This document shows, piece after piece, positions 8,605-60,156 of a stretch of 64,000 nt of DNA (position 1 is the first letter of the stretch; each line of letters begins with the position of its first letter). This stretch comes from an uncultured Pseudomonadales bacterium. GTDB lineage: Bacteria > Patescibacteriota > Microgenomatia > UBA1400 > PJMF01. The notes below the pieces were generated by a model. That model was given only the letters and a program-made list of their open reading frames with translations. It ran no database searches and was not told where the DNA came from. Position numbers and translations under genes: made by a program. Location: positions 3,806 through 67,805 of the forward strand of contig CAZCXA010000001.1 of assembly GCA_964502565.1 (NCBI GenBank), in the 5' to 3' direction.

Positions 8605-10887
8605 CTATTCTTTAATTTTAATCGAGATGCGATTAGAGTCATTGGGTAAAAACTTAAAAAATCGTCCAGAAAAAGAAGGTGAGTGGGAAAATGTGACTTG
8701 ATCAATGGTTTCTTCTTCTCTTAAGAGTGAGCTAGCTTGATCAAAGGAAACGCCGATCAACCTTGCTTGAAAATCTTGCTCAGCTAGCTCGGCTCGACAT
8801 TTTCCTGAAATCTCAACCTCTAGCCGAGTTTGAGAGGCGTCTTCTTCATCATCTATAATCCTTGAAATAACATTTAGGCTGTCATCGATAAAAAGATAGT
8901 TTTCTGGGATATCATTTTCTAAAACCTTTTTAGCTAAAGTTAGTAAATCTCTTGTGGTGTAACTTAAACCCTCTACAGCCAAAGTTAAGGATAAAGAAAC
9001 ATTTTCAAGTTCCTCACCAACCTCGTCGCTATATTTTTGCTCAACAATTTTATAATTTTCAGTGGGCACAATATAAATATCCTGACTGAAATTATCTTCT
9101 AACTTTTCTCGAGCTTGTTTTAGTAATCTTTGTTTTAAGTTAGCTAATAGCTCTTTGTGGTCAGCATCGGCCACAACCCTTATTTCTCGACTTGAGCCTC
9201 CAGTAAAATCACTTTCTGTTCGAGCAGAGTAGGTGTTATCACTAAAATCAGCAATTTTTAAATCTGTTTTTTGGCTTATGTTGCCTTCCACCCCAATTTC
9301 TCGAGCAGTCACCTTGGCACTCTTTTTGCCAAACTCCTTCATCTCTGCCTCACCACCTTTGGCTTCTTCGATAGAAGCAGCAGGTACTGTAATCTCCTCG
9401 TCTAACTCAAACTCGAGATCCTCGGTTTTTAAGATCGTGTTTTTAGCAAATGTTTTTTCTTCACTCGTCTTGTTAAAAATAACCACCAAACCTTTAGCTT
9501 TTTCTCCGACTGGCTTTACTCCGGTTGTTTGAATAGTATCTTTATCTGAAACCTCCTCTGTGATAACTTCTGCTTTAAGCAGACTGTTAACTGGGTCTGA
9601 TTGCGCAACTGAAGAACTCAAACTAATCACAGAGTTTTTACTTAAATTTTTTGTTTGAGGAGCAATCTGGACCTCAACCTGATAGTTCATTTTAAGCAAA
9701 AAGTAAAATACTAACACTGAGATGACTAAGCCTAAAACAACACTGAGAATTATAACTGGCTTGAGAGCTAATTTTTTCTTCTTATTTTTTTTACCAGCAG
9801 TGTCAATCTCAACAAAACTCGAACCTTGTTTTTCATCAGGTTTTTCAAGTTCAACAGGCCTGAAGTTGTTAACCTCTTCGTCTTGAGCTGTTTTCAATAA
9901 CGATTGAGTCGTTGCTTCGGTTTTACGCGCAAAGTCTGGTTGCTCAAGCTCAGGTTGTTCAGTTGGCACTCTTGGGCTAGTTTGTGCGCTGTTGATCGAG
10001 TCTGAGCTTAAAGCATCTGCCAGTTCTTGTGAATCAACTGGTTGACTCATCTGGGAAAACTGCACTGCTGACACTAAACCAGCCGATCCAGCTTGAACCG
10101 AATCAATCTCTGCATCATGAGGAATTAAACCTTTTTGTTTAGCAACTACCTCCCCATAATATTTAGTCACGATGTCCAAAAGCTGGTCTGAAGTGATAAT
10201 CTCAATAATAGGTTTCTGCACAAAGTTAAAATCTTGTGTCCAGTTTAATGAAAACAGCTGTTGCTGATAAAGTATTAACTTTTCAGGATCAATCACGGCT
10301 GAAAGCAAGATAATGTTAGGTGGAAGCTTGATGCCATTGGTTGCAAAGTTCTGCTCCAAGCGAGCTAAAGCTTCCTGAAGATCAGATACGATATCCTCAG
10401 ATCGCCCCACTGATAAAGAACCAGCCACTTTGCCTTGGCGTACAATCATTAAATCTAAGGATTGAGCGCCAATATATAAAACAATTGAAGAGAGAAAGCT
10501 GTTATTCTTAAGCAAGTGCTGAAGTGCGGCCTCGGTGGTTGACACAAACCCAAGTGGTTTTAAAGATAGCGACTCGGTAAGATTCTTAAGGTCTTTTTCA
10601 TGCTCTGCTGAAATCTTGTTGTTCTTGATCCAACTCGGCTCAAAGGCAAACAATATTTCGTCAGTTTCTTCTGATCTATCACCTAAATCCTGCAAACTTT
10701 CATCCATTTGTACGAGCTGTTCTTCAGTACTATTGTAATATCTTACTTTTGATTTACTTAAGAGAATAATTTTTTGTTCAAAAACTTGCCACAGACTAGA
10801 ATGAATCGATTGATCGGTTATTAAAGAAAGAATAAACAGGTTCTTTTTATCTGGTTTTTTTTTGGAGAAAAGATTTGGCAGGCCCAT
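8605..10887 (-). CDS. Hypothetical 760-aa bitopic membrane protein: N-terminal FtsA/PilM-like actin-fold domain, low-complexity linker, single TM, ~370-aa extracytoplasmic domain
   Basis: N-terminal LFILSLITDQSIHSSLWQV... and IGAQSLDLMIVRQGKVAGSLSVGRSEDIVSDL resemble phosphate-1/phosphate-2-like regions of FtsA/PilM actin-fold proteins; TM at ILSVVLGLVISVLVFYFLL; domain call is by eye only. Confidence 0.4.
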   Translation of the reverse strand: MGLPNLFSKKKPDKKNLFILSLITDQSIHSSLWQVFEQKIILLSKSKVRYYNSTEEQLVQMDESLQDLGDRSEETDEILFAFEPSWIKNNKISAEHEKDLKNLTESLSLKPLGFVSTTEAALQHLLKNNSFLSSIVLYIGAQSLDLMIVRQGKVAGSLSVGRSEDIVSDLQEALARLEQNFATNGIKLPPNIILLSAVIDPEKLILYQQQLFSLNWTQDFNFVQKPIIEIITSDQLLDIVTKYYGEVVAKQKGLIPHDAEIDSVQAGSAGLVSAVQFSQMSQPVDSQELADALSSDSINSAQTSPRVPTEQPELEQPDFARKTEATTQSLLKTAQDEEVNNFRPVELEKPDEKQGSSFVEIDTAGKKNKKKKLALKPVIILSVVLGLVISVLVFYFLLKMNYQVEVQIAPQTKNLSKNSVISLSSSVAQSDPVNSLLKAEVITEEVSDKDTIQTTGVKPVGEKAKGLVVIFNKTSEEKTFAKNTILKTEDLEFELDEEITVPAASIEEAKGGEAEMKEFGKKSAKVTAREIGVEGNISQKTDLKIADFSDNTYSARTESDFTGGSSREIRVVADADHKELLANLKQRLLKQAREKLEDNFSQDIYIVPTENYKIVEQKYSDEVGEELENVSLSLTLAVEGLSYTTRDLLTLAKKVLENDIPENYLFIDDSLNVISRIIDDEEDASQTRLEVEISGKCRAELAEQDFQARLIGVSFDQASSLLREEETIDQVTFSHSPSFSGRFFKFLPNDSNRISIKIKE

Positions 10888-18329: not shown

Positions 18330-20501
18330 TTATTCCTCGTCAGCCTTTGCTTGAGCTAAATAGGCTTGAACCTTCTCCTTGATCACCTCTCTTGGCTTAC
18401 TGCCTTCTGGCGGACCAATTAACCCAGCCTCATGCATATTATCCAAGATCCTGGCGGCGCGATTATAACCAATACTCAAACGTCTTTGTAGTAATGATGC
18501 TGAAGCCTTGCCCCGATTGTTAAAAACCTGAACCGCTTGATCAAACAGTTCATCTTTTGCCTCGTTTTGATCTGCGCCTTCAAAATCAATCACTTGATTA
18601 GTTTTATATTTACTGGTGACATCATCCTCATACTGAGGTAGTTGACCATGAGATTTTAAATAATCTATCAAGGCTTTGGTTTCTTTAGGAGAGACAAAAG
18701 TGCCCTGAATACGAATCGGTTTAGCGCGATCAGGAGCCTGATATAACATATCACCTCGACCTAGTAATTTTTCCGCCCCTGCCGAGTCTAGGATCACACG
18801 CGAGTCAATTAATGAGTTAACTTGAAAAGCGATTCGAGCAGGAATGTTAGCCTTGATTAATCCAGTAATCACATCTACAGAAGGTCGCTGAGTAGACAAT
18901 ATCAAATGAATGCCCACTGCTCGAGCCATCTGTGCGATACGGGTCACTGAAGCCTCGACATCTCCAGGAGCAAACATCATGATATCAGCCATCTCATCAA
19001 TCACGATCATTAAGTTTGGCATGGCAGACAAACCAGCGAGCTCGTTGTAGGCCTCAATATCTTTCACCCCTACCTCCTGTAGCAGTTTGTAACGCTTTTC
19101 CATTAAGCTCTCGGTCCATTTTAAAGCAGAGATCACTTTTTTCGGTTCCACAATCACTGGCGTAATTAAATGTGGAATATCTTGATATTGAGTTAGCTCC
19201 ACTCGCTTTGGATCCACCAAGATTAGGTTTAACTCAGATGGGCTGGCCCTGAACAATAATGAGCTTAAGAAATTATTAATACAGATAGACTTACCAGATC
19301 CGGTTGAGCCAGCAATCAGCAGATGAGGCATCTTGGAGATATCAGCGATTACTGAGTTGCCTGCAACATCAATCCCCAACCCGACCGCTAACTTTGAAGG
19401 ATGCTTTTTTAAAACACTGGAACCTAAAATTTCACGCAAGGTCACAAACTCGAACGAGCGGTTTGGCACTTCAATACCCACCAAAGAACGGCCAGCAATC
19501 GGCGCCTCGATACGAATTTGCCCAGTAGGTGCTGCTAAAGCCATTGCTAAATCAGTAGATAAGCTGGTAATTCTTGATAGTTTAGTGCCACGAGCGACCT
19601 CTAAAGCATATTGGGTGACCGAAGGTCCGAAGTTTACTTCTTTAACAAAAGCTTGAATACCAAATGACTCTAAGGTGCCCTCAATAATATCCGCATTCTG
19701 ATTAACATCGCCCCGATCAGCCTCTCCACCCTTTGTTTCAGATAGTAAAGACAGGGGTGGATAATCCCACACCAATGGTAAGTTGCTCGGAGTCAATAAA
19801 TCTTGACCATCTTTTAACTCATCTTTAGAACTGGATTTTTGTTCAGATGATTGAGCCAATGCTTGCCCAGATACTACCGCGGTGCCGGTCTGGTCATCAC
19901 CTACTCCCTGCTCTTTTAAGTTAACCTGTTTAACCGTAAGTTGTTTCTCTTTCTTGCCTAGTGATAATCTTTTAAACAAGCTTAATTTTTCTTTTTGCTT
20001 CTCAACCTTTTTATTAAGCTTTTTATCTTTGAGCTGATCAAGCCATTTATTGATTGCGTTCGCTAGCTCTACTAAGGAAGACTGCAAAGCAATTAAGATA
20101 GAGGCAATCATCAGTCCCACAGCAGTCACATAAGTGCCAACCGGACTTAACAAACGGGCAATATTAAAAAAAGTTTGCTGACCGATCTCGCCTGTTTGCA
20201 AGGCAATATTAAAGGCCATGGAAAAAATCAGCACACCAAGCAACACGTTTGGCTCAGCCCACTTCCATTTGGTTTGGAGCATTACCAAACCTGAAGAAAT
20301 AAAGATTAAAGGCAAGAATAGCAAACTTAAGCCAAGTTTAAGAGTTAAAAAAGAGTAGATACTTTGTAGGACAACGCCCTGACCAGTGAAAGAGATTGCG
20401 ATCAACACCCCAACCAAGATTAAAAAAATTGACACGATTGAATGGAGTGTGTTGGCCTCAATCTTAAGTTTAATTGGTTTAGACTTTTTGCGTCTACCCA
20501 T
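18330..20501 (-). CDS. ftsK: DNA translocase FtsK/SpoIIIE
   Basis: N-terminal 4 TM helices, linker, then FtsK motor with Walker A GSTGSGKS and gamma winged-helix C-terminus. Confidence 0.9.
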   Translation of the reverse strand: MGRRKKSKPIKLKIEANTLHSIVSIFLILVGVLIAISFTGQGVVLQSIYSFLTLKLGLSLLFLPLIFISSGLVMLQTKWKWAEPNVLLGVLIFSMAFNIALQTGEIGQQTFFNIARLLSPVGTYVTAVGLMIASILIALQSSLVELANAINKWLDQLKDKKLNKKVEKQKEKLSLFKRLSLGKKEKQLTVKQVNLKEQGVGDDQTGTAVVSGQALAQSSEQKSSSKDELKDGQDLLTPSNLPLVWDYPPLSLLSETKGGEADRGDVNQNADIIEGTLESFGIQAFVKEVNFGPSVTQYALEVARGTKLSRITSLSTDLAMALAAPTGQIRIEAPIAGRSLVGIEVPNRSFEFVTLREILGSSVLKKHPSKLAVGLGIDVAGNSVIADISKMPHLLIAGSTGSGKSICINNFLSSLLFRASPSELNLILVDPKRVELTQYQDIPHLITPVIVEPKKVISALKWTESLMEKRYKLLQEVGVKDIEAYNELAGLSAMPNLMIVIDEMADIMMFAPGDVEASVTRIAQMARAVGIHLILSTQRPSVDVITGLIKANIPARIAFQVNSLIDSRVILDSAGAEKLLGRGDMLYQAPDRAKPIRIQGTFVSPKETKALIDYLKSHGQLPQYEDDVTSKYKTNQVIDFEGADQNEAKDELFDQAVQVFNNRGKASASLLQRRLSIGYNRAARILDNMHEAGLIGPPEGSKPREVIKEKVQAYLAQAKADEE

Positions 20502-20586: not shown

Positions 20587-22242
20587 TTAATCTAAAAATA
20601 CTGGAATAACAATTGGCTCTCTTTGAATAGTCCTGTATAGTTTCTTTTTTAGTTCTTTTTCTACTTTTTTTCTTAAATCATGATCTTTTAATTCTGGGTT
20701 TTCTTTAATCGCGTCAACAGTAATCTCTTTAATAAACTTGATCACTTCATCAGCCTGTTTCATAAAAACAAAACCTCGGGAAATAACCTCTATTTTACCC
20801 AATTGAAAACAGCCCTGGTCTCTTGGTATTACTACCACCACCATACCAGCCTCACTTAAGGCCAAACGGTCTGAAAGCACAACCGGACCTACATCACCAA
20901 TGCCCAAGCCGTCAATTATCTTTGGATTTAACTTAATCTGTTGCTCGATTTTCCAGTTCTTGTTAAAAAAAGATACAATCTCTCCAGTCTGAGGAATTAT
21001 GATCTGTTCATCACTATACCCAAGTTTGTGAGCCACTCTGGTACGGAACAGTTCTCGATGTCGATCAGCGCCTCCGATAGGCATCACAAATCTTGGTTTA
21101 GCCAAAGACAACATCTCTTGCTGTTCCGCAGCGCTGGCATGACCGGTTTGATGAATGTTGGGAGATAGCGTTGGGTAAACCACTTGAATTCGATTTTTAC
21201 TCAGTTCATCAATGGCTCGATAATAAGGAACCTCATTGCCGGGAATAGCATCTGCTGAAAAAACAACCTTGTCTGTGCCGTTTATCTGAATTAAGCTGTG
21301 TTCTCCAAAAACAGCTCTTACTAATGACGAACCTTCTTGACCCTGACTACCGGCGATGACCACGGTTAACTCATGATCTTGGTAGTTACTTAGGTTTTTC
21401 TTGTTAACTAAAACTTTTAAAGGCACCCGAAGCTTGCCTAGCTGTTGAGCTGTTTTAACACTTTGCTCCACACTGCGACCGATAAAACAGACTTTACGAT
21501 TATTTTTTACAGATATGTCTATCACTTGTTGAATCCTGTGCAAGTGCGAGCTCATTAAAGTCACTACAAACTTACCTTTGACTCCATGAATTTCTTTTTC
21601 AATAGCTGGCCCGGTGGTAGATTCTGACTTACTCCATTCCTCCCTTTCCACTCTTAAACAGTCTAGCAACATCAACAAAATACCTTTTTTGCCCGCCTGC
21701 TCAACTGCATCTAAGTCGGTTAAGACTCCATCGATTGGATGCTGATCAAGTTTAAAATCAGAGCCATAATAGATCACTCCCTCAGGTGTATCAATCAAGA
21801 TATGCTTGGCATCAGGTACTGAATGAGTCACCGCCAGCGGAGTGATAGCAAAGTGCTGTCCAAGTTTAATCTGTTGATGATCCTGAATCACCTCAACCTT
21901 GTTGCTCAACCCTCCATCTTTAATTCTATTCTGCGCAAAGCCAGCTGTTAAACTCGAGCCATAAATAGGAAAATCTGGTAACTCTGGCAAAAAATAAGGT
22001 AATGCTGCGATGTGGTCATCGTGACCATGACTAAAGACTAACCCCACAATCTTCTTACCTTGTTTTAACTCAGAGAGTAAATAACTAATATCAGGAATAA
22101 TAACATCAGCTCCCGGCATATATAAATCAGGAAAACCGATCCCGCAATCAGCGATTAAAATTTCTTGATCATACTGAAAAAGAAACATGTTTTGGGTAAC
22201 TTCACCCATTCCACCCAAAGGTACAATTTTTAGTTTGTTCAT
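20587..22242 (-). CDS. rnj: Ribonuclease J (metallo-beta-lactamase / beta-CASP)
   Basis: HGHDDH motif (VFSHGHDDHIAALP), beta-CASP region and C-terminal domain; 551 aa. Confidence 0.9.
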   Translation of the reverse strand: MNKLKIVPLGGMGEVTQNMFLFQYDQEILIADCGIGFPDLYMPGADVIIPDISYLLSELKQGKKIVGLVFSHGHDDHIAALPYFLPELPDFPIYGSSLTAGFAQNRIKDGGLSNKVEVIQDHQQIKLGQHFAITPLAVTHSVPDAKHILIDTPEGVIYYGSDFKLDQHPIDGVLTDLDAVEQAGKKGILLMLLDCLRVEREEWSKSESTTGPAIEKEIHGVKGKFVVTLMSSHLHRIQQVIDISVKNNRKVCFIGRSVEQSVKTAQQLGKLRVPLKVLVNKKNLSNYQDHELTVVIAGSQGQEGSSLVRAVFGEHSLIQINGTDKVVFSADAIPGNEVPYYRAIDELSKNRIQVVYPTLSPNIHQTGHASAAEQQEMLSLAKPRFVMPIGGADRHRELFRTRVAHKLGYSDEQIIIPQTGEIVSFFNKNWKIEQQIKLNPKIIDGLGIGDVGPVVLSDRLALSEAGMVVVVIPRDQGCFQLGKIEVISRGFVFMKQADEVIKFIKEITVDAIKENPELKDHDLRKKVEKELKKKLYRTIQREPIVIPVFLD

Positions 22243-22364: not shown

Positions 22365-24200
22365 CTAATGTATTTCTGATCTTCTATCTCTTAAAAAAGA
22401 CCGCCAGTCTTCAACTAAACCCACGATTACGGAAAACGGGGCGTCAACCAAGGCTGTGAAAAAAACGCTGACAATATTATATTCTTTCCATTTAGCTGAG
22501 AGCCACTGCCCAACCTGAGCCAAAGGCAGATAAAAGAAATCAACCATCATGGTTAAAATACCCCCACTCTCTTGAATAGTCAGCTCTTGTGCTTTATGTC
22601 TAATAACCATGGCAGCAGAAACCACCATGGCCACGTTTACAACATCAACATAAATTGATGTCCAGGGCACTCCAGCTACTTTAAATACTAAGTAAACTGC
22701 ATAAGCTCCGACCAAGCCTCCAAACAAACTTATAAGACTAAAGATAAAGTCTAAAAACCAGTTTCTTTTTTTAACCAGGTTAATCTCAAACTCATCTTTT
22801 TCATCACTCTTTAAGATAACCTTCAGAATCTCCTCTTTAACTCTGCCAAGATTTTCTTTTTTTGGAGGCTGAATCGTGATAACTAAGACAAACATTAATG
22901 AGGACGGGATCGCGAGGTCAATAAATAAAGCAAACAGGCTAAAACCTTCTCCAACAAACTCTGCCACCGGACCCTCAAAAATAATAAAACTCACTACGCC
23001 CGCAACAAAGATTGATAAAGTTGAATAAACTGCTGACCGATAAAGCCTGCTTTTTAAAGTTGATAAACGACGGTTGTAAGCCAGAGTAATAGTCTCAAAC
23101 AACTGTTTTTTATCCTTAAGTTTTGGCTCGATTGATTCTGGATCTTCTTCTAACTCCTTAACAACATCGCCAAATATTAAAAAAGCTGCATCTTGTCTTT
23201 CGCAAATCTTAAAAAACTCTTTACCATACTTATGTTCTAGATCTGAACTGATCTGCTTTTGAACTTGATCGATATTTTCCGCAAAATTTTTTACAAACTC
23301 CTGATCATCCTCAAACCACTGAGGATAATGATATTTAATAAGATTGTAACTGATGATTGGGGAGTCAAGTGAAAATAATGCACGATGTGCCGCGACATAT
23401 GTTTGAACTAAAACCTCCTCATCAGACATAAAATTTTTCGGCGTAACCTTTAAACTGTTGTAAATTGAAAAAGTCATAAAATTAATCAGGGCGTTTTCCT
23501 TAAAAGCCGGTTCTAAAATCTCCTCGATTTCACAGGCTGCAATTTCGAGAATCCAGTTATAAAAATTAACCTTTTCTTTTAGATTAGCCTTGCGTTTTTT
23601 TCGCTCGCTCTTGTTTAAATCAGATGTAATCTCAGACAGATAACGCTTGCCTGAAAATGGTGAGTTGTTAATTATGTAAATATATTTTGCCAAGCTTTGT
23701 TTTGCGAGCGGAATCTTGTTTTTTGAGATCTGTTTGTTGGAAAAATAACCACTTCTAACCATTTCCTGCACTAAGGGCCCGGTGATTATTTCTGCATCTA
23801 AAGAACTCTGACCAATGCCTGATATTTCTGAAAGCAAGGTTCTTTTTAAGATCCTCTCAATAGCAGAGCGACGAATTAAGTTTTCTTCTTTCCAATCAAT
23901 AACTCTTCGAACCTTTTCATATACTTTTGCTAACTTCGCAGCAAACTCATCACTTTCTATTGGAGAAACCACCGGCTTTTGTTGATACAAAATACCTTGA
24001 ACATAATCTAATAAAAATTGATTGGTTAAATCGTTAAGTTCATATTGAGAAGACAGCTCAACTTGATTAAGGATTGATTTCGACATAATAGGAGACGAAC
24101 TAGACTTAGCCTGGTTTTCTTGGCTTGATTGTTCTACTGACTGATCTGTCTCATTATTAAGTTGGTCTGAACTTGAAACATTAGTCTGAGTTTGAGTCAT
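22365..24200 (-). CDS. Hypothetical 611-aa protein: ~380-aa cytoplasmic N-domain + C-terminal multi-TM region
   Basis: No family recognised by eye; Ser/Gln/Glu-rich N-terminus; at least four hydrophobic helices in last 230 aa. Confidence 0.5.
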   Translation of the reverse strand: MTQTQTNVSSSDQLNNETDQSVEQSSQENQAKSSSSPIMSKSILNQVELSSQYELNDLTNQFLLDYVQGILYQQKPVVSPIESDEFAAKLAKVYEKVRRVIDWKEENLIRRSAIERILKRTLLSEISGIGQSSLDAEIITGPLVQEMVRSGYFSNKQISKNKIPLAKQSLAKYIYIINNSPFSGKRYLSEITSDLNKSERKKRKANLKEKVNFYNWILEIAACEIEEILEPAFKENALINFMTFSIYNSLKVTPKNFMSDEEVLVQTYVAAHRALFSLDSPIISYNLIKYHYPQWFEDDQEFVKNFAENIDQVQKQISSDLEHKYGKEFFKICERQDAAFLIFGDVVKELEEDPESIEPKLKDKKQLFETITLAYNRRLSTLKSRLYRSAVYSTLSIFVAGVVSFIIFEGPVAEFVGEGFSLFALFIDLAIPSSLMFVLVITIQPPKKENLGRVKEEILKVILKSDEKDEFEINLVKKRNWFLDFIFSLISLFGGLVGAYAVYLVFKVAGVPWTSIYVDVVNVAMVVSAAMVIRHKAQELTIQESGGILTMMVDFFYLPLAQVGQWLSAKWKEYNIVSVFFTALVDAPFSVIVGLVEDWRSFLRDRRSEIH

Positions 24201-24301
24201 AAAATCATATTATATAGGAATCAGAGGAAAAAGTTATCTACTTCATAAATAATGAAGCCGAGGTAAAGATGAACTACTTTAACTACTAACTGTTAATAAC
24301 T

Positions 24302-25369
24302 CTAATATTTGGGTAAAAATATTTCCCTATTTTCTCGAGTAATAATCACTTTATTAAAACCTCTTTCCACGATAATTCTAGCTGCTTTGCGTACTGCTCC
24401 TTGCAAGGTTCTTTGCAAGGTTCTAATGCCAGCATCAAAACCCAAAGGTCTAATGACATTTGGCCAGACATCTGCCTTAATAATAAGCTGCCCAGGTTTT
24501 AGCCCGGCTTGTTTTAATAAATCTGGTAAAACATATTTTTGAGCTATCACTAACTTTTCATGATCTGTGTACGAAGGCATATCAATCCTTTCCACACGAT
24601 CTAACACGGCTGTTGGCAATCTGACCGTGTTGTTAGCAGTGGCCAGAAAAATTGCCTTACTTAAGTTAACTGGATAGTCAATATATGAATCGGTAAACGC
24701 ATGATTTTGGGCTGGATCTAACAACTCAATCAGTACACCCATTATCTCCTGGTTAGCCTCATCACTAGCACGATCAACCTCATCCAATAAAACAACAGGA
24801 TTTTCAACATGTGACTCGCATAATCCTTTTATAACCCTACCTGGTTCACTACCTAAAACTAGCCTGGAACTACCACGTATTTCTTTAGCTGAACCCATGC
24901 CTCCAAACGGAATACGCACCAACGGTCTGTTTAGAGCCTCAGCTAGAGCATAACCAAAAGTAGTCTTACCAGTACCAACTAAACCGACCAGCAACAAGAT
25001 TGGTGCACTAAAATCTTCTTGCTGAAAATTTTGTTGTCTTAACTTTAAAACAGAGATATATTCCAAGAACCGATTTTTAATCTCCTCCATCCCATAATGG
25101 TGTTTGTCAAAAATACTCTTTGCTTCTTTAATATCAAGTCTGTCAATTGCTTTTTCTCCCCATGGCAAGCGCAAAACCCAATCAATATACTTGCTAACCG
25201 TTTCATATTTCACATCATAACTGCCCAGTTCTACACTACGTTTTAAAGCAATAATATCTTTTTTTACCTTACGCCTTAACTCGTCAGGCATCTTGGCGTT
25301 CTCTGCTTTTTTTTGCAGTTCCTCGATCTCATCCTGAAGAACTTGTTGATAATTGTTGGCTTGAGTCAT
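24302..25369 (-). CDS. LonA-type AAA+ ATPase module without N-terminal LON domain and without protease domain
   Basis: Aligns by eye to E. coli Lon ~res 230-590: coiled-coil LRLPWGEK...LDIKEAKSIFDKHHYGMEEIKNRFLEYISV, Walker A LVGLVGTGKTT, Walker B VVLLDEVDR, sensor-1 FLATANN, LDRVERI; ORF ends where the Lon protease domain (S-K dyad) would start. Confidence 0.75.
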   Translation of the reverse strand: MTQANNYQQVLQDEIEELQKKAENAKMPDELRRKVKKDIIALKRSVELGSYDVKYETVSKYIDWVLRLPWGEKAIDRLDIKEAKSIFDKHHYGMEEIKNRFLEYISVLKLRQQNFQQEDFSAPILLLVGLVGTGKTTFGYALAEALNRPLVRIPFGGMGSAKEIRGSSRLVLGSEPGRVIKGLCESHVENPVVLLDEVDRASDEANQEIMGVLIELLDPAQNHAFTDSYIDYPVNLSKAIFLATANNTVRLPTAVLDRVERIDMPSYTDHEKLVIAQKYVLPDLLKQAGLKPGQLIIKADVWPNVIRPLGFDAGIRTLQRTLQGAVRKAARIIVERGFNKVIITRENREIFLPKY

Positions 25370-26298
25370 AAGTTTGGTTGGGCCAAATCTTCCTTGGTAA
25401 GTAAACCTGTTTTAGCTCCATAATACTTGATAACCGAGGCTGCATTTTTTGCACCAATTTCAGCTGATTCTTTTATTGATTTTTCCCACAAGATACCAGC
25501 TACAAAACCGGTAGCAAAAGCGTCTCCAGCTCCAGTCGCATCAATTGGCAGACCACCTAAAGCCGGAAAGTGCAAAACATGTTCATTATTATAATAAACA
25601 TCACCCCCTCTTTTACCAGCAGTAACCACCACATATCTAAAACTTTGCAAAACCTCTCCCTGGACATTAGCTATCATTGACCATTCCTCGGTATTAACAA
25701 AAAATACTTCACACGAAATTGTTTTGACTGATAATTGACGATTAGACAACAAAGCTAGCTCTTTTTTCCCTGGGTTCCAGGACAAATTAGCATAATTATT
25801 TCTGCCAACGTATTGAAAAATTTTTTCTAGAGTATCCTGATTACCGCCGATGCTGGTTAAATGAACCCATTGAGCTTGAGAAAGCCAATAAGCCGAGATG
25901 TCAAAAGGGTCAAGCATACCAGCTGCGCCACGATGAACAAGGACCGAGCGTTCACCTTCAGGACAGATCAAGATAACTGATCCACCAGTTTGCTCTTTTT
26001 TTTCTTCGATAATTAGGTTGGTGGCCACGCCATTCTTTTTTAAATCAGATTTAACCAGCTCTGAAAAACTGTCTCTGCCGGTTTCACAAACCACGCTGGT
26101 TTGGAAACCTAACCTAGAAAAACCAACTGCTGTATTGCCACCCCCGCCTCCAGTAAAAACATTAAAACTATCGATCTCAAGTTTGCCACCATAGGTATGG
26201 CAAAGCATTACATCAGAATCAACTTCTTTCACTCGAAACTTATGAGTATGAAGAAAGATGTCAATTAAAGCCGAGCCGATAGATATTATTTGGTGCAT
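25366..26298 (-). CDS. PfkB-family carbohydrate/nucleoside kinase (ribokinase-like)
   Basis: GG di-Gly N-terminal motif (FTGGGGGNTAVGFSRLG) and C-terminal DATGAGDAF anion hole motif; ATGA overlap with downstream Lon-like gene. Confidence 0.8.
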   Translation of the reverse strand: MHQIISIGSALIDIFLHTHKFRVKEVDSDVMLCHTYGGKLEIDSFNVFTGGGGGNTAVGFSRLGFQTSVVCETGRDSFSELVKSDLKKNGVATNLIIEEKKEQTGGSVILICPEGERSVLVHRGAAGMLDPFDISAYWLSQAQWVHLTSIGGNQDTLEKIFQYVGRNNYANLSWNPGKKELALLSNRQLSVKTISCEVFFVNTEEWSMIANVQGEVLQSFRYVVVTAGKRGGDVYYNNEHVLHFPALGGLPIDATGAGDAFATGFVAGILWEKSIKESAEIGAKNAASVIKYYGAKTGLLTKEDLAQPNL

Positions 26299-26528
26299 TT
26301 GATTTGGAGTGTTTGGTATGAAGTGTTTGATACTTGATATGGGTATTAGGTATGATGGGGAGATTCTGCATCTTTGTCATACCTAGAACACTGCCTTGGT
26401 TAATATAAGACTAAGCATCTTAATTAAATCATGAAATGCTTGTCGACTAAACCATAACTTAAAGATAATAAGTATATCAAACACCTTATTTCAAAGGGGG
26501 AAGGATTGTTAAAAATATGGAAAGTTGT

Positions 26529-28571: not shown

Positions 28572-28778
28572 TTATTTCTTAACTTTTCTTAGTACTGGCA
28601 TACCTGTTCTCTTGGTTTCAACAACTTCATAACCAGCTGGTACAGCTCCAATTGCTTCATTTCGAACATCGCGGGCAAAGAAATAAATAGTTTGAACACG
28701 ACCGTTTTTGAGGGTTACATCCTTCTTGTGAAGAAAGTAGGTCTGACCCTTTGAGTTTGAATAACTATAAGCACTCAT
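28572..28778 (-). CDS. Hypothetical small basic protein (68 aa)
   Basis: ORF only; Lys/Arg-rich; no family recognised. Confidence 0.35.
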   Translation of the reverse strand: MSAYSYSNSKGQTYFLHKKDVTLKNGRVQTIYFFARDVRNEAIGAVPAGYEVVETKRTGMPVLRKVKK

Positions 28779-55898: not shown

Positions 55899-56768
55899 TT
55901 ACAGTTCTTCAATCTCAATTTCAGGAGAAATTTCTTGATGATCGTCGATTAGCTGTAAATATTTTTCAGTAGTAGTGATACGTTTGTGACCTACTAACTG
56001 TGATACATATACCAAAGGCGTGCCAGCTCTCAACTGCTCAACAATGAAGGTGTTGCGCAGATCATTAACAATAGCATCCTGAATACCAGCAAGCTTAAAA
56101 TGACGATTAATGGCTGCTCTGATATTTCTTACTAAAAAGGGACGGCAAGTCTTGGTTAAAAAGATGCATTTTTCCTTAGCTCTAGGACGTACTTTTAAAT
56201 AATCCATCAATGCTTGTTTAGCTGCTTTATTCAATGGTACTTTTCGACCACCTCGGCTCTTATAGGGTTGAACTTGAATAATACCTCTTTCCAGATCTAC
56301 ATCATCGGTTTTTAGGTTTGCTAACTCACTAATGCGCATTCCTGTTTGCAAAAGTAACTCTACCACAGCAAAAATTCTAACATCTGACCGACAAGCATCT
56401 CGCAGAGCTCGGTACTCCATTTTTGATAAAAAACGAGATGGTTTTTGCTCGAATTTAGGATGTGAAATTTCAGAGGCAGGATTGTTCTCAACTAAACCTT
56501 CGTTCTCTAAAAATCTAAAAAAAGATTTTATCGAGTTGATTTTTCTAGAGATCGATTTATTAGCATAGCGCCGACTCTTTAGTAGCTCCTTAAATTGATT
56601 GATATCTTCATGAGTAACTTCCGAAGCCAGTTCCTTCCCTTGATCTAGAGCATACTCAGCCAACTGTTCTAAGTCTTTAACATAAGCAATCACTGTAGCC
56701 GTGGCCTTGCCGTTTGACTCTAAATATTGACGATATTTTTGTTGTGCAACTGTTAGAGAAATAGCCAT
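55899..56768 (-). CDS. Tyrosine site-specific recombinase (XerC/XerD-like)
   Basis: Core-binding + catalytic domains; R...HxxR (LVGHKRIT)...Y (EKYLQL) catalytic residues; 289 aa without phage-type arm-binding domain. Confidence 0.85.
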   Translation of the reverse strand: MAISLTVAQQKYRQYLESNGKATATVIAYVKDLEQLAEYALDQGKELASEVTHEDINQFKELLKSRRYANKSISRKINSIKSFFRFLENEGLVENNPASEISHPKFEQKPSRFLSKMEYRALRDACRSDVRIFAVVELLLQTGMRISELANLKTDDVDLERGIIQVQPYKSRGGRKVPLNKAAKQALMDYLKVRPRAKEKCIFLTKTCRPFLVRNIRAAINRHFKLAGIQDAIVNDLRNTFIVEQLRAGTPLVYVSQLVGHKRITTTEKYLQLIDDHQEISPEIEIEEL

Positions 56769-57284: not shown

Positions 57285-57434
57285 AAAACTCCTTTATCAC
57301 ACAAAAACAGCCACAACCACCACAAGAAGAAAAGGTGGTGAAAAAATTAATATTTTTCACACTCCTTGTGAAAAATTGAAGAATCTTGAAAAACCTAAGA
57401 AGTATTTAACAAAGCTTCACTCTCTTAAAACTTG

Positions 57435-57508
57435 TAGCAGGGGTGAGACTTGAACTCACGACCTTCGGTTTATGAATCCGATGCTCTAACCAACTGAGCT
57501 ACCCTGCC
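57435..57508 (-). tRNA. tRNA with anticodon CAT (elongator Met or lysidine-Ile2 type)
   Basis: Minus strand GGCAGGGTAGCTCAGTTGGTTAGAGCATCGGATTCATAAACCGAAGGTCGTGAGTTCAAGTCTCACCCCTGCTA; cloverleaf with G1-U72, anticodon loop TTCATAA. Confidence 0.8.
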
Positions 57509-57682
57509 ATAAAAAATCACCTAAATCAATCTTGAAAAAAATATTGATAATTGATTTTAAAGAAAAAATGTATTTTATTTAAACAGACAGTTCAACTGAT
57601 GATTAACCAAAAAAATACCGTTGGTTGATTATACCAAATATTATCTTGTATAATAAACCTTTGAAACAACCCAATTCAACAA

Positions 57683-57751
57683 CGCGGGATAGTGTACGGT
57701 GCACGCAAGGCTCATAATCTTGCAGGCTAGGTTCGACTCCTAGTCCCGCAA
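57683..57751 (+). tRNA. Initiator-type tRNA-fMet (CAT) with compact D/anticodon region (69 nt)
   Basis: CGCGGGA...GGCTCATAATC...GGTTCGACTCC...TCCCGCAA closely parallels E. coli tRNA-fMet (CGCGGGG...GGCTCATAACC...GGTTCAAATCC...CCCCGCAA) including C1xA72 mismatch; D-stem GTGT/ACGC, 7-nt D-loop. Confidence 0.75.
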
Positions 57752-57822
57752 CAAATTTTTTTTGAAAAAAAATACTGACTGGTCAGTGATTAAATATTCC
57801 TCATTATTGAGCCTAAACTTAC

Positions 57823-60156
57823 ATGTTCAGCGTGCAACAAAAAAAAACCAAACTTCTGTTGATATTTTCTCTTGTTGTTTTAACTGCCTTGGTCTTGATC
57901 TTCTCTTATCAAGTTAAAAAGGAAACCAGTTTTGAGTTCGAGGCTCAACAAACTCATCAGGGAAGAATTGTGCATAACCCACACCAGGGCATCTTTCAGT
58001 GCCATTCAATTACTGAAGCTGGGGATGAGGTGTATATTAAGGGCGGAGGAATAATAATTAAGTGGGGCGATTTTCAACCTCTTAATAACAATCAGTTAGA
58101 CCGAGAAAAAACCAACCACTTAATCAACCAGTTAAAAGCTCTTAAACAAAAAAGTAAAAAAGCCTATATACATGTCATGATTTATGAAGAGCCTGGCAGA
58201 GATGACATGATTAACTCTATTCCTCAATGGATTAATGCTCATGATGATGATCCCAGCACTGACCAAATAGAAATCATAAGAGCCTTTGTCCGCTGGAAAG
58301 GCAACACGCCCCAATACAGACTCTATCCTGCTCCCTGGGGTAAAAAATATCAGGATAAACTTAAAAAGTTTTTATCTCTACTGAATCAAGAGTTTAAGGA
58401 TGCTGGTGTTCTGGACACCGTTGAGTATTTTGAGCCCTCTGCAGGGGGTATTTGGGGAAGCACTCATTTATGGGTGCCTGATGATCAGCTTACTAGTTTT
58501 GCTAGAGCTGCTGGTTGTAGCGACACAGACTGGACCTGTTTAGGTGTGGCATTTAACAGGGGTGTGAATGAAGTAATTCAAACATATTTATCAGCATTTC
58601 CTACAAAATCAGTCATGATGATTGGTGGCACTGGTGCTCACCGGGAGGCAAATTATACCTCTCTTAATCAATTAATTGATCGCTATGGAATGAGAGTGAT
58701 GTATAAATCTGCTGGGTTAGGTGCAAGTTATGAGAATTCCTGTGGACTTAGGTCAGAGATAACTGATCCCATATGTAAAGGGTCTTTGGCTAAGACCAAA
58801 TGTGGTCAAGAACCGTGGCTAAGTACAGCTAGTGGAGCTTTTAATCCAGGAGATGTTTGTGGAAAAAACTATTTTCAAACTTATGAGGCTTCATTAGCGC
58901 AAGAATCAATCAGTTATTACTGCCTTTATTCTTATGACATCCCCAATCAAACTGAAACAAATGAGTACCTGGCGAGAAAATTTGCTTCCCAAATTAGGTT
59001 AGCCGAACATGAAATAATAAGCCTAGAAAATAAAAACCTGCGTTTAAAATTAACATGGAACAATGAGGGTAGTATTCCCTTAACTGCACCGTTAAAAATT
59101 GGAGAGAAGTGGCAAACTTCATCTTATAAACTTTTTCTCGAACTAGAAAAAAACAATACAGTTGCTCACTATCAGGAAATTGAGATTCAACCTCCAACCA
59201 ACACCTGGGTTCCTATAAATCATTTTTTTACTACGACTCAAGATGCAGTTTTCAATCTTAATGCAAACTTAACTGGAGCCTATGATATCTATGTTGGTTT
59301 AACTGATCCTAATGGTGAAAAAGAGAGGTTTGCTCTTATTAACCCTGAAAGCGACAATGATATTGTCCAGAGAAGATACTTAATTGAAAAAAATGTTGAT
59401 GTTAACAGCACCTATACCCCTAAAGCTACTCCTACTCCTACTTCTACTTCAGGTGCGTCGCCCAGGCCCACTTCTGGAGCTACACCTTCAAGTAGTGGAG
59501 AGATTAAATTAAATCTCATTATTTCTTTAGATGGAGTGCCTTATGTTGAGGGTTTAAACCGTTTCCATCCGCTTGATGTTAATAAAGAGGTTGAGATTGC
59601 AGTTTTTTTGATCAATGTCAAAAATTTACCGGTTCATAGACAAGCAACCTTTGTTTACCAACCAGATTCTGAAGTTTATCAAACCAAACAAGACCTTGTT
59701 TATCAGGATCTTCCCTCTGGTCCCTATATGATCATGCTGAAAGGTCCCAAACATTTAGACATGCGGTTCTGCTTTACCGATGATAAGGCTGATGGCAACT
59801 GTACTGTTAAGGAGTTAATCAGGGCCTCGGTTGGTGCAAGTGGTTATAAGTCTTATGCTCAAGCGAAACAAGATAAATTTATCTGGCTCGCAACAGGTCG
59901 TAGTCATAACTTAAACCTGTCAAAGGTCCCCTTATTAGCTGGTGACCTACCTATTTCAGGACAGGATAAAAATACACAAGATGGTGCGGTTAACATTTAT
60001 GATTACTCATTTATTCTGTCTTGTCTTAATAACCGTCGTGATTATGCCTGTATTCAAAGAGCTGATATTAATTTCACAGGACAGGTTGACAATATAGACT
60101 TAAGACTAATGAGGAGAGGCTTTACCGAGTCTTTGATGACAAAAGCATATCAATAG
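57823..60156 (+). CDS. Large Cys-rich secreted protein: N-terminal TM/signal anchor, putative (beta/alpha)8 hydrolase-like domain, beta-rich middle domains, Pro/Thr linker, C-terminal dockerin-like double Ca-loop module
   Basis: C-terminus has two ~22-aa segments DKNTQDGAVNIYDYSFILSCL and ADINFTGQVDNIDLRLMRRGF fitting D-x-N-x-D-G-x-V-N-x-x-D + hydrophobic helix of dockerins; linker TPKATPTPTSTSGASPRPTSGATPSSSG. Confidence 0.5.
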   Translation: MFSVQQKKTKLLLIFSLVVLTALVLIFSYQVKKETSFEFEAQQTHQGRIVHNPHQGIFQCHSITEAGDEVYIKGGGIIIKWGDFQPLNNNQLDREKTNHLINQLKALKQKSKKAYIHVMIYEEPGRDDMINSIPQWINAHDDDPSTDQIEIIRAFVRWKGNTPQYRLYPAPWGKKYQDKLKKFLSLLNQEFKDAGVLDTVEYFEPSAGGIWGSTHLWVPDDQLTSFARAAGCSDTDWTCLGVAFNRGVNEVIQTYLSAFPTKSVMMIGGTGAHREANYTSLNQLIDRYGMRVMYKSAGLGASYENSCGLRSEITDPICKGSLAKTKCGQEPWLSTASGAFNPGDVCGKNYFQTYEASLAQESISYYCLYSYDIPNQTETNEYLARKFASQIRLAEHEIISLENKNLRLKLTWNNEGSIPLTAPLKIGEKWQTSSYKLFLELEKNNTVAHYQEIEIQPPTNTWVPINHFFTTTQDAVFNLNANLTGAYDIYVGLTDPNGEKERFALINPESDNDIVQRRYLIEKNVDVNSTYTPKATPTPTSTSGASPRPTSGATPSSSGEIKLNLIISLDGVPYVEGLNRFHPLDVNKEVEIAVFLINVKNLPVHRQATFVYQPDSEVYQTKQDLVYQDLPSGPYMIMLKGPKHLDMRFCFTDDKADGNCTVKELIRASVGASGYKSYAQAKQDKFIWLATGRSHNLNLSKVPLLAGDLPISGQDKNTQDGAVNIYDYSFILSCLNNRRDYACIQRADINFTGQVDNIDLRLMRRGFTESLMTKAYQ

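Follow-up and report, generated by a model that had tools for sequence, protein, structure and literature searches.

Gene and domain architecture

The 64,000-nucleotide stretch of contig CAZCXA010000001.1 analysed here (the window) comes from a genome of the Candidate Phyla Radiation (CPR) type with a low GC content of about 38%. Its content is core housekeeping, and its genes include rpoB, AlaRS, FtsK, RNase J, PNPase, IF-2, NusA, DnaJ, DnaK, FtsH and GroEL. On the minus strand it encodes a complete, stand-alone Lon-type AAA+ ATPase of 355 amino acids (aa), which has the motor of the LonA protease and neither its protease domain nor its N-terminal substrate-binding domain. The gene and the parts that can be recognized in it are the following.

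24302..25369, minus strand: complete stand-alone Lon-type AAA+ ATPase gene, 355 aa, ATG start, stop codon at 24302–24304 (from the list of open reading frames)
25028..25369, minus strand: residues 1–114, C-terminal part of the LonA long helix and three-helix bundle, with LPW at 68–70 and the segment HYGM..IK.RFLEY
24962..24985, minus strand: Walker A GLVGTGKT, residues 129–136 (alignments, codons checked)
24839..24877, minus strand: pore-loop-1 equivalent RGSSRLVLGSEPG, residues 165–177, with Val171 at the LonA tyrosine position (alignment to 3m6a)
24779..24796, minus strand: Walker B VVLLDE, residues 192–197, followed by the replaced pore-loop-2 segment RASDEANQEIMG
24596..24640, minus strand: sensor-1 (TANN, residues 244–247) to arginine finger (R258 in LDRVE), aligned to LonA TAN...DRME
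24359..24514, minus strand: Lon-type lid (alpha) subdomain, residues 286–337, with sensor-2 R316 in the clade-specific RPLGFDAGIR (Pfam Lon_lid)
24305..24322, minus strand: C-terminal tail IFLPKY, residues 350–355, kept in the subfamily and equivalent to the LonA linker into the protease domain

Pfam places two domains in the open reading frame (ORF), AAA (PF00004, residues 125–262, 58.5 bits) and Lon_lid (PF22667, residues 286–337, 31 bits), both above cutoff. The NCBIfam model TIGR00763 ('lon') is matched at positions 251–570 of 795 only, with 308.4 bits against a cutoff of 608.05. By phmmer against PDB sequences, residues 13–354 correspond to residues 8–340 of B. subtilis Lon (3m6a) and the ORF also aligns with residues 249–583 of 7p6u, in both cases with E about 1e-71, and residues 12–349 correspond nearly end to end to chain residues 8–336 of 6n2i, the E. 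coli Lon(235–584) fragment. The match to LonA is limited to the long-helix and three-helix-bundle region and the AAA+ module (E. coli residues ~242–580), and shows an identity of 34–40% over all 355 aa. Residues 1–114 align with residues 8–104 of B. subtilis Lon and with E. coli Lon from about residue 242, and in this region helices are predicted by AlphaFold2 (AF2) at 2–24, 29–47, 53–67, 80–90 and 95–114. The C-terminal tail is conserved per subfamily, as IFLPxY in the ORF's own subfamily and as F.P...G..S in the Dojkabacteria type.

The AF2 model of the protein has a predicted local distance difference test score (pLDDT) of 93.1 and a predicted TM-score (pTM) of 0.86, and contains the helical bundle, the alpha/beta part and the lid of the LonA fold. 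The best 50 Foldseek matches in the PDB are all LonA or LONP1 chains, with E 1e-26 to 4e-32 and query-normalised TM-scores (TMq) of 0.79–0.85, and the 6n2i fragment is matched with TMq 0.81 and a target-normalised score (TMt) of 0.85. The initial annotation, which was made by eye, had described a LonA AAA+ module encoded on its own and aligned to the middle of LonA over its whole length, with LPW, Walker A and B, sensor-1, arginine finger and sensor-2 in place. The profile searches and alignments agree with it on each of these points, and structure prediction of the ORF alone gives a confident LonA-like model. The ORF is very probably a LonA-derived AAA+ module with its preceding helical region.

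Absence of the protease and N-terminal domains

Neither Lon_C (PF05362) nor LON_substr_bdg (PF02190) is found by Pfam in the 355-aa ORF, and no S16 protease or Lon N-domain was found in the ORF, in the 64-kb window or in about 0.6 Mb of related loci. Custom hidden Markov models (HMMs) for Lon_C and for the N-domain, built from the C- and N-termini of 74 canonical LonA sequences, gave no match in any frame of the window and of 23 related loci, with controls scoring 141–276 bits. An earlier six-frame search of the window with an approximate E. coli Lon_C query was likewise without a match, and its positive controls worked. The gene is followed by a short spacer:

24201..24301, minus strand: spacer of 101 nucleotides (nt) after the ATPase stop, without a protease-domain remnant

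The ATPase frame ends with TAT TAG and, on direct reading of the sequence, all three frames of the spacer stop within about 35 nt. A hidden or frameshifted protease domain was rejected, since the six-frame and HMM searches were empty and had positive controls. The earlier claims that the protease is missing and not frameshifted, and that an unrelated gene begins about 100 bp further on, are both borne out, the next gene encoding a 611-aa protein without Pfam or NCBIfam match.

A full-length lon gene that was cut by a frameshift or a misassembly, leaving a pseudogene or an artefact, would account for the short length of the ORF, and nothing else speaks for it. On the other side, four assemblies made independently (one from JGI, two from Logan and one from ENA) contain the identical ORF (99.7–100%), hundreds of homologues stop at the same position, the catalytic residues are invariant in 81 members, no Lon_C remnant lies downstream in any frame, and the spacer is closed by stops in all frames. 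The chance of such an origin is negligible, and the gene is, as had been stated at the outset, not a pseudogene. The truncated architecture is genuine and is kept in hundreds of clusters.

Extent and descent of the family

Hundreds of homologues of 350–510 aa end at the same point, and they are found in Woesebacteria, Pacebacteria/Paceibacterota and Dojkabacteria, all of which are Patescibacteria. The best 120 database homologues are all 351–438 aa long, mostly 352, and 68–100% identical, with AAA and Lon_lid as their only domains and with Patescibacteria, Woesebacteria or Pacebacteria/Paceibacterota as the named sources. Divergent relatives were sought among 1.84 billion representatives at 50% identity, and this search gave protease-less forms of 351–669 aa, again with only AAA and Lon_lid in Pfam. 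A profile made from the divergent forms led to a second large subfamily, of 355–632 aa, in Dojkabacteria/WS6. The additional length of some members does not correspond to Lon domains: the N-terminal extensions of P0133, P0136, P0138 and P0181 gave at most 0.4% in hhalign comparisons with the Lon N- and C-domains (controls 99.9–100%), and no Lon_C was detected by Pfam or the custom HMM in the C-terminal extensions of P0159 (548 aa, Candidatus Dojkabacteria), where about 200 aa form a Ser/Asn-rich low-complexity tail, and of P0145 (428 aa), where the extension is about 80 aa.

An unbiased metagenome sample consisted of 80 loci with short (protease-less) forms or canonical LonA. The 12 short forms are 349–382 aa long with Walker A GL[VP]G[TS]GKT, and have no Lon_C in either the ORF or the locus. 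The other 68 are canonical LonA with GPPGxGKT, except two with GAPGVGKT, and all have a G[HF]R[RK]TY-type loop; Lon_C is located in the same ORF in 67 of them, the exception (L093) being cut by the contig end, and the N-domain is present in 64, the remaining four beginning at a contig end. The HMM of the short form separates the two groups, with 456–576 bits for short forms against 327–383 bits for canonical LonA. In a neighbour-joining tree all protease-less forms constitute one clade, separate from canonical LonA, and mean identities are 49% among short forms, 51% among LonAs and 38% between the two. Since the diversity of the short forms about equals that among bacterial LonAs, the loss of the domains should be old. 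The nearest canonical LonAs that bear names come from Clostridiales and Anaerolineales, not from CPR.

In all likelihood the family is ancient and Patescibacteria-wide, and would have arisen from LonA through the loss of two domains, the N-terminal one for substrate binding and the C-terminal one with the Ser-Lys protease. Within Patescibacteria the protease-less Lon ATPase is a standard, highly conserved gene, yet it is unusual among bacteria at large. The remark in the initial annotation that such a module is not a standard bacterial component is thus correct for bacteria at large and incorrect within Patescibacteria, where hundreds of clusters have it.

In public databases members of the family are called 'ATP-dependent Lon protease', 'Lon protease 1' (one member of the Dojkabacteria/WS6 subfamily) or 'AAA family ATPase', and the first two labels are functionally wrong because the family has no protease domain. 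There is no curated NCBIfam or Pfam family specific for the protease-less Lon ATPase, and in the literature on Lon, protease-less forms and CPR we found no description of the family or of any protease-less LonA, and nothing linking Lon to CPR. Some of the contigs are also labelled in an unexpected way: L008–L011, L013–L015 and L019 are CPR-type contigs with this ATPase, and their public label 'uncultured Pseudomonadales bacterium' is probably a mislabel.

A different group of proteins led the search of the representatives, only through summed scores. These proteins (P0121–P0131, P0137, P0139 and others) are 900–1700 aa long, contain two to four tandem Lon-type AAA modules with GPPGxGKT, and end in Lon_C where tested (P0121, P0122 and P0126). 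Several of their modules have degenerate pore loops beside a canonical one, an unusual multi-ring Lon architecture. Fusions of tandem AAA modules with Lon_C were considered as 'Rosetta stone' proteins that would point to a protease partner of the short form, and were rejected, as their Walker A is of the GPPG type and they belong to another clade.

Conserved motor and variable pore loops

Conservation and pore-loop composition were analysed in 81 diverse short forms of 41–90% identity. Invariant in all of them are K135, T136, D196, E197, N246, N247, R258 and R316, and further P69, H91, G93, K98, T244, D257 and G314. Signatures of the clade are GL.G.GKT, (A/S)EPG, M210, W302 and RPLG.D.G.R. All residues predicted to act in ATP binding and hydrolysis, including the trans-acting arginine finger, are invariant.

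The pore loops have another composition. Pore-loop-1 reads GSSRLVLG in the ATPase, with Val171 at the tyrosine position, and GHRRTY[VI]G in LonA (69 of the 74 representatives). Position 171 of the 81 short forms is occupied by E (16), F (15), L (12), Y (12), I (8), V (6), R (3) or M (2), that is by F/Y in 27, by an aliphatic residue in 28 and by E/R in 19, and in the close subfamily of 120 sequences it is L, I or V in 95. The D[FW]RGDP of pore-loop 2 in LonA is replaced by EAN(Q/R)(D/E)I. As judged from the alignments, the family tolerates different residues at the position with which Lon grips the polypeptide, and the motor chemistry is under absolute constraint. A classical unfoldase role is weakened, because the pore-loop tyrosine is not conserved.

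These loops also bear on the possibility that the ATPase is one component of a split Lon or two-component protease and feeds a separate peptidase, which might be an S16 protein with Lon_C only, ClpP or another self-compartmentalised peptidase, in the manner of ClpX-ClpP or HslU-HslV. The intact ATPase site and the arginine finger, which implies a ring, would suit such a role, and so would the aromatic pore-loop residue kept in some members and the subfamily-conserved C-terminal tail, which occupies the place where LonA enters the protease and might serve in docking. ClpP and FtsH are encoded in the annotated complete genome of at least one patescibacterium in culture, Southlakia epibionticum (PMC10633639). 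The same genome has no Lon N-domain and Lon_C finds only a weak match in YifB/ComM, so some CPR should lack Lon proteolysis; this organism, for which transposon sequencing (Tn-seq) exists, shows no sign of the short form either, and no fitness data therefore apply. Other observations are difficult to combine with a split protease. Lon_C is missing from every frame of the window and of the 23 related loci and from the 12 metagenomic short-form loci, and among about 35 short-form loci there is no peptidase that recurs beside the gene. No Lon_C fusion of the clade is present among the best 120 matches of the first search, and the sole fusion of the second search, P0126, is a tandem-AAA protein of another clade with a GPPG-type Walker A. 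Alignments by eye show no IGF-type ClpP-docking loop, and with a tyrosine that is not conserved, and Glu in about 20% of the members, obligatory threading is hard to reconcile. We regard a two-component protease as unlikely.

Genomic context

The ATPase gene is surrounded on the same strand by the following genes.

25366..26298, minus strand: PfkB-family sugar kinase, its stop overlapping the ATPase start (ATGA), conserved upstream only within the own subfamily
22365..24200, minus strand: 611-aa membrane protein of no family, hydrophilic in its N-terminal half and hydrophobic in the C-terminal one
20587–22242, minus strand: RNase J (Pfam), one of only two neighbours that still follow the ATPase in deeper-diverged subfamilies
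18330–20501, minus strand: FtsK (Pfam), the other neighbour kept there

PfkB and the ATPase are probably co-transcribed, since the stop of the former overlaps the start of the latter. The best sigma-70-like site is located at 26494–26465, upstream of PfkB, and is a weak hint only, as the scan for promoters and terminators gave no more sites than expected from shuffled sequence.

All relatives of the own subfamily are collinear in the order FNR-o178-o68-RpiB-Rpe-LOG-PfkB-(variable)-ATPase-(variable)-RNase J-FtsK. Across the same loci the identity is 65–76% for the ATPase, 42–67% for PfkB, 53–76% for RNase J and 56–80% for FtsK. In the more distant loci the ATPase is the best conserved member of the block, for instance in L005 with 70%, against 57–58% for FtsK and RNase J and 45% for PfkB, and these identities place it under stronger constraint than the housekeeping genes around it.

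Pfam, NCBIfam and PADLOC give no match for the 611-aa protein, and it lies behind the ATPase in L001–4, L008, L009 and L023 alone. It is missing from this position in L005–7, L010–22 and L028–39, where UDG or small ORFs are found instead or RNase J follows directly. The membrane protein had been proposed as a partner of the ATPase, which could be its adaptor or motor in a membrane-tethered machine like LonB. The two genes share a strand and are separated by 101 nt, and the pair is kept at 65–68% identity in the closest relatives (L008, L009 and L023). However, the 611-aa protein is gone from the position in all more distant relatives, in which the ATPase is still 65–70% identical, and no homologue of it lies within +/-10 kb in those loci. 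The comparison with membrane-anchored LonB likewise fails, since the ATPase has no LonB-type transmembrane insertion and its best matches are all LonA. A membrane-tethered machine of this kind is very improbable. The 611-aa protein is a lineage-specific insertion between ATPase and RNase J and no conserved partner. The short form is conserved across Patescibacteria, the gene pair in the closest relatives only.

The linkage to RNase J and FtsK extends further. Loci of the deeper P0132-like subfamily (L028, L029, L030, L032, L036 and L039) encode ATPases that are 45–51% identical to the 355-aa ATPase, and keep the order ATPase, (UDG), RNase J and FtsK on one strand, with RNase J being 34–46% identical. 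In L028–L030 RNase J directly follows the ATPase with gaps of 14–77 nt. The upstream neighbours are not kept in the P0132-like loci, and across diverged CPR loci UDG is often inserted between ATPase and RNase J. Members of the Dojkabacteria type are located in unrelated contexts and are not linked to RNase J.

This gene order raises the alternative of a nucleic-acid-linked ATPase, which would work with RNase J and/or FtsK, for example to remodel an RNA-decay or chromosome-segregation complex, or would itself bind DNA or RNA. The order on one strand holds in all loci of the own subfamily as well as in the P0132-like subfamily, a variable and at times acidic pore loop speaks against polypeptide threading, the predicted isoelectric point of the ATPase is 8.7, and LonA binds DNA. 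On the other hand the linkage is absent from the Dojkabacteria-type members, and it may be inherited, since adjacency of RNase J and FtsK is an old syntenic block in Gram-positive lineages. In E. coli Lon a basic patch just after the PW motif (R306/K308/K310/K311) is reported to mediate DNA binding, whereas the segment after PW in the ATPase, GEKAIDRLD, is not basic. A role of this kind has an outside chance of being correct.

PADLOC defence models gave generic partial matches to the AAA core only (PDC-M37B 32 bits, DolB 27 bits and IetA 23 bits), and a known anti-phage defence ATPase was rejected on account of these weak partial matches and the core housekeeping context.

Other features of the region are recorded here for completeness. 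The 68-aa ORF at 28572–28778 on the minus strand, beginning MSAYSYSNSKGQTYFLHKKDV, has no Pfam match on record and is 69–85% identical in own-subfamily relatives (the ATPase about 65–76%), which equals or exceeds the conservation of the neighbouring enzymes. Two long ORFs, at 8605–10887 on the minus strand (760 aa) and at 57823–60156 on the plus strand (777 aa), have no Pfam family at E <= 1e-5. A tyrosine recombinase of the XerC/D type (55899–56768, minus strand) adjoins two divergently oriented tRNA-Met(CAT) genes at 57434–57752.

Possible function

Of LonA, the protein retains the long helix in its C-terminal half, the three-helix bundle, and the AAA+ module in full. It might be expected to assemble into a Lon-like hexameric ring or spiral, since the conserved arginine finger is useful only at a subunit interface and since the equivalent E. 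coli Lon(235–584) fragment packs as a helical hexamer. The ATP hydrolysis cycle would drive a non-proteolytic housekeeping task, most likely ATP-dependent binding or remodelling of proteins, as a chaperone-like continuation of the protease-independent activity of Lon. Because the tyrosine of pore-loop-1 is replaced by Val or is variable, and pore-loop 2 is replaced, the polypeptide is probably gripped weakly or in a non-canonical way, and it is doubtful whether the protein unfolds substrates processively. From sequence and modelled structure we give this non-proteolytic, Lon-derived remodeller a rough probability of 0.4–0.5. The initial annotation had suggested a chaperone or an unfoldase; chaperone-like remodelling is the part that we favour, and a classical unfoldase is less secure. 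Nothing so far shows a new mechanism for a protease-less Lon ATPase.

Several points weigh against such a remodeller. About a third of the members keep F/Y at the pore-loop position and the own subfamily is hydrophobic (aliphatic) there, so threading may be retained. The linkage to RNase J and FtsK might point to a role related to nucleic acids rather than to protein remodelling. Laboratory-made AAA+ fragments of Lon often show little activity when they lack the protease domain, by which the hexamer is normally stabilised, and a gene elsewhere in the genome might encode a peptidase partner.

The non-proteolytic remodeller could also be part of a longer history, in which several major Patescibacteria lineages lost Lon proteolysis early and kept the Lon motor as an indispensable remodeller tied to RNase J and FtsK, with the substrate-contact loops re-purposed away from threading. 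This more extended scenario is improbable, but if true it would define a new functional class of AAA+ protein in the HCLR clade, and would be a natural experiment separating the Lon ATPase from proteolysis.

Lon is one of life's most conserved proteases and, to our knowledge, its ATPase and protease have always been described as one polypeptide. The CPR constitutes a large share of bacterial diversity, and its members have very few spare genes. A natural Lon without protease and substrate-binding domains, under strong selection in several major CPR lineages, gives a direct handle on the role of the Lon motor without proteolysis, including the old question of chaperone and other non-proteolytic roles. 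It also bears on proteostasis in the reduced cells of CPR bacteria, where the window alone encodes FtsH, DnaK/DnaJ and GroEL.

Comparison with known systems

LonA (TIGR00763, MEROPS S16; 3M6A of B. subtilis, 7P6U of T. thermophilus and 6U5Z of E. coli) has the same fold (TMq 0.80–0.85) and the same pre-ATPase helical region, including the LPW and HYG..VK.RILEY motifs, together with Walker A and B, sensor-1, arginine finger, sensor-2 and the Lon-type lid. Unlike LonA, the ATPase lacks both the N-terminal substrate-binding and the Ser-Lys protease domain, has SRLVLG in place of GHRRTY[VI]G in pore-loop-1 and a replaced pore-loop 2, and reaches about half of the cutoff score of TIGR00763. Its Walker A is GL.G.GKT instead of GPPG.GKT, and RPLG.DAG.R precedes sensor-2 where LonA has YTREAGVR. 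As far as the alignments go, the protein is the LonA motor but not the LonA protease, from which it is separated by the protease domain, the N-domain, the family cutoff and the pore loop.

The limited-proteolysis fragment E. coli Lon(235–584) (6N2I) is ADP-bound and forms an open helical hexamer in the crystal (Rotanova et al. 2019, PMC6722904). Its boundaries are nearly identical to those of the ATPase, but 6N2I is a laboratory fragment of a protease, whereas the ATPase is a natural full-length product under purifying selection and has altered pore loops.

The Hsp100/HCLR proteins ClpB, ClpX and HslU are likewise AAA+ rings without a covalently attached peptidase. The pore loop is aromatic in all three, and defined peptidase-docking elements are present in ClpX and HslU. 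The helical region of LonA has been likened to the helical/M-domain region of ClpB AAA-1 (PMC6722904). The ATPase family differs from ClpB, ClpX and HslU in that an aromatic pore residue is kept in only part of its members and its genes have no linked partner.

Within the Lon family itself, LonC (for example that of Meiothermus taiwanensis) has kept the protease and lost the ATPase motifs, and is the opposite of the ATPase described here, in which the ATPase motifs are intact and the protease is absent. LonB has no N-domain but still has the protease, and its AAA+ module is interrupted by a membrane anchor. Unlike LonB, the ATPase aligns with LonA without interruption, nothing being inserted between Walker A and Walker B, and has no Lon_C. 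A functional parallel concerns yeast PIM1, of which a proteolytically inactive active-site mutant studied by Rep and co-workers in 1996 reportedly acts as a chaperone. The mutant is a precedent for a useful protease-independent activity of the Lon ATPase, although it is an engineered point mutant with all domains and the pore-loop tyrosine, unlike the ATPase of the window.

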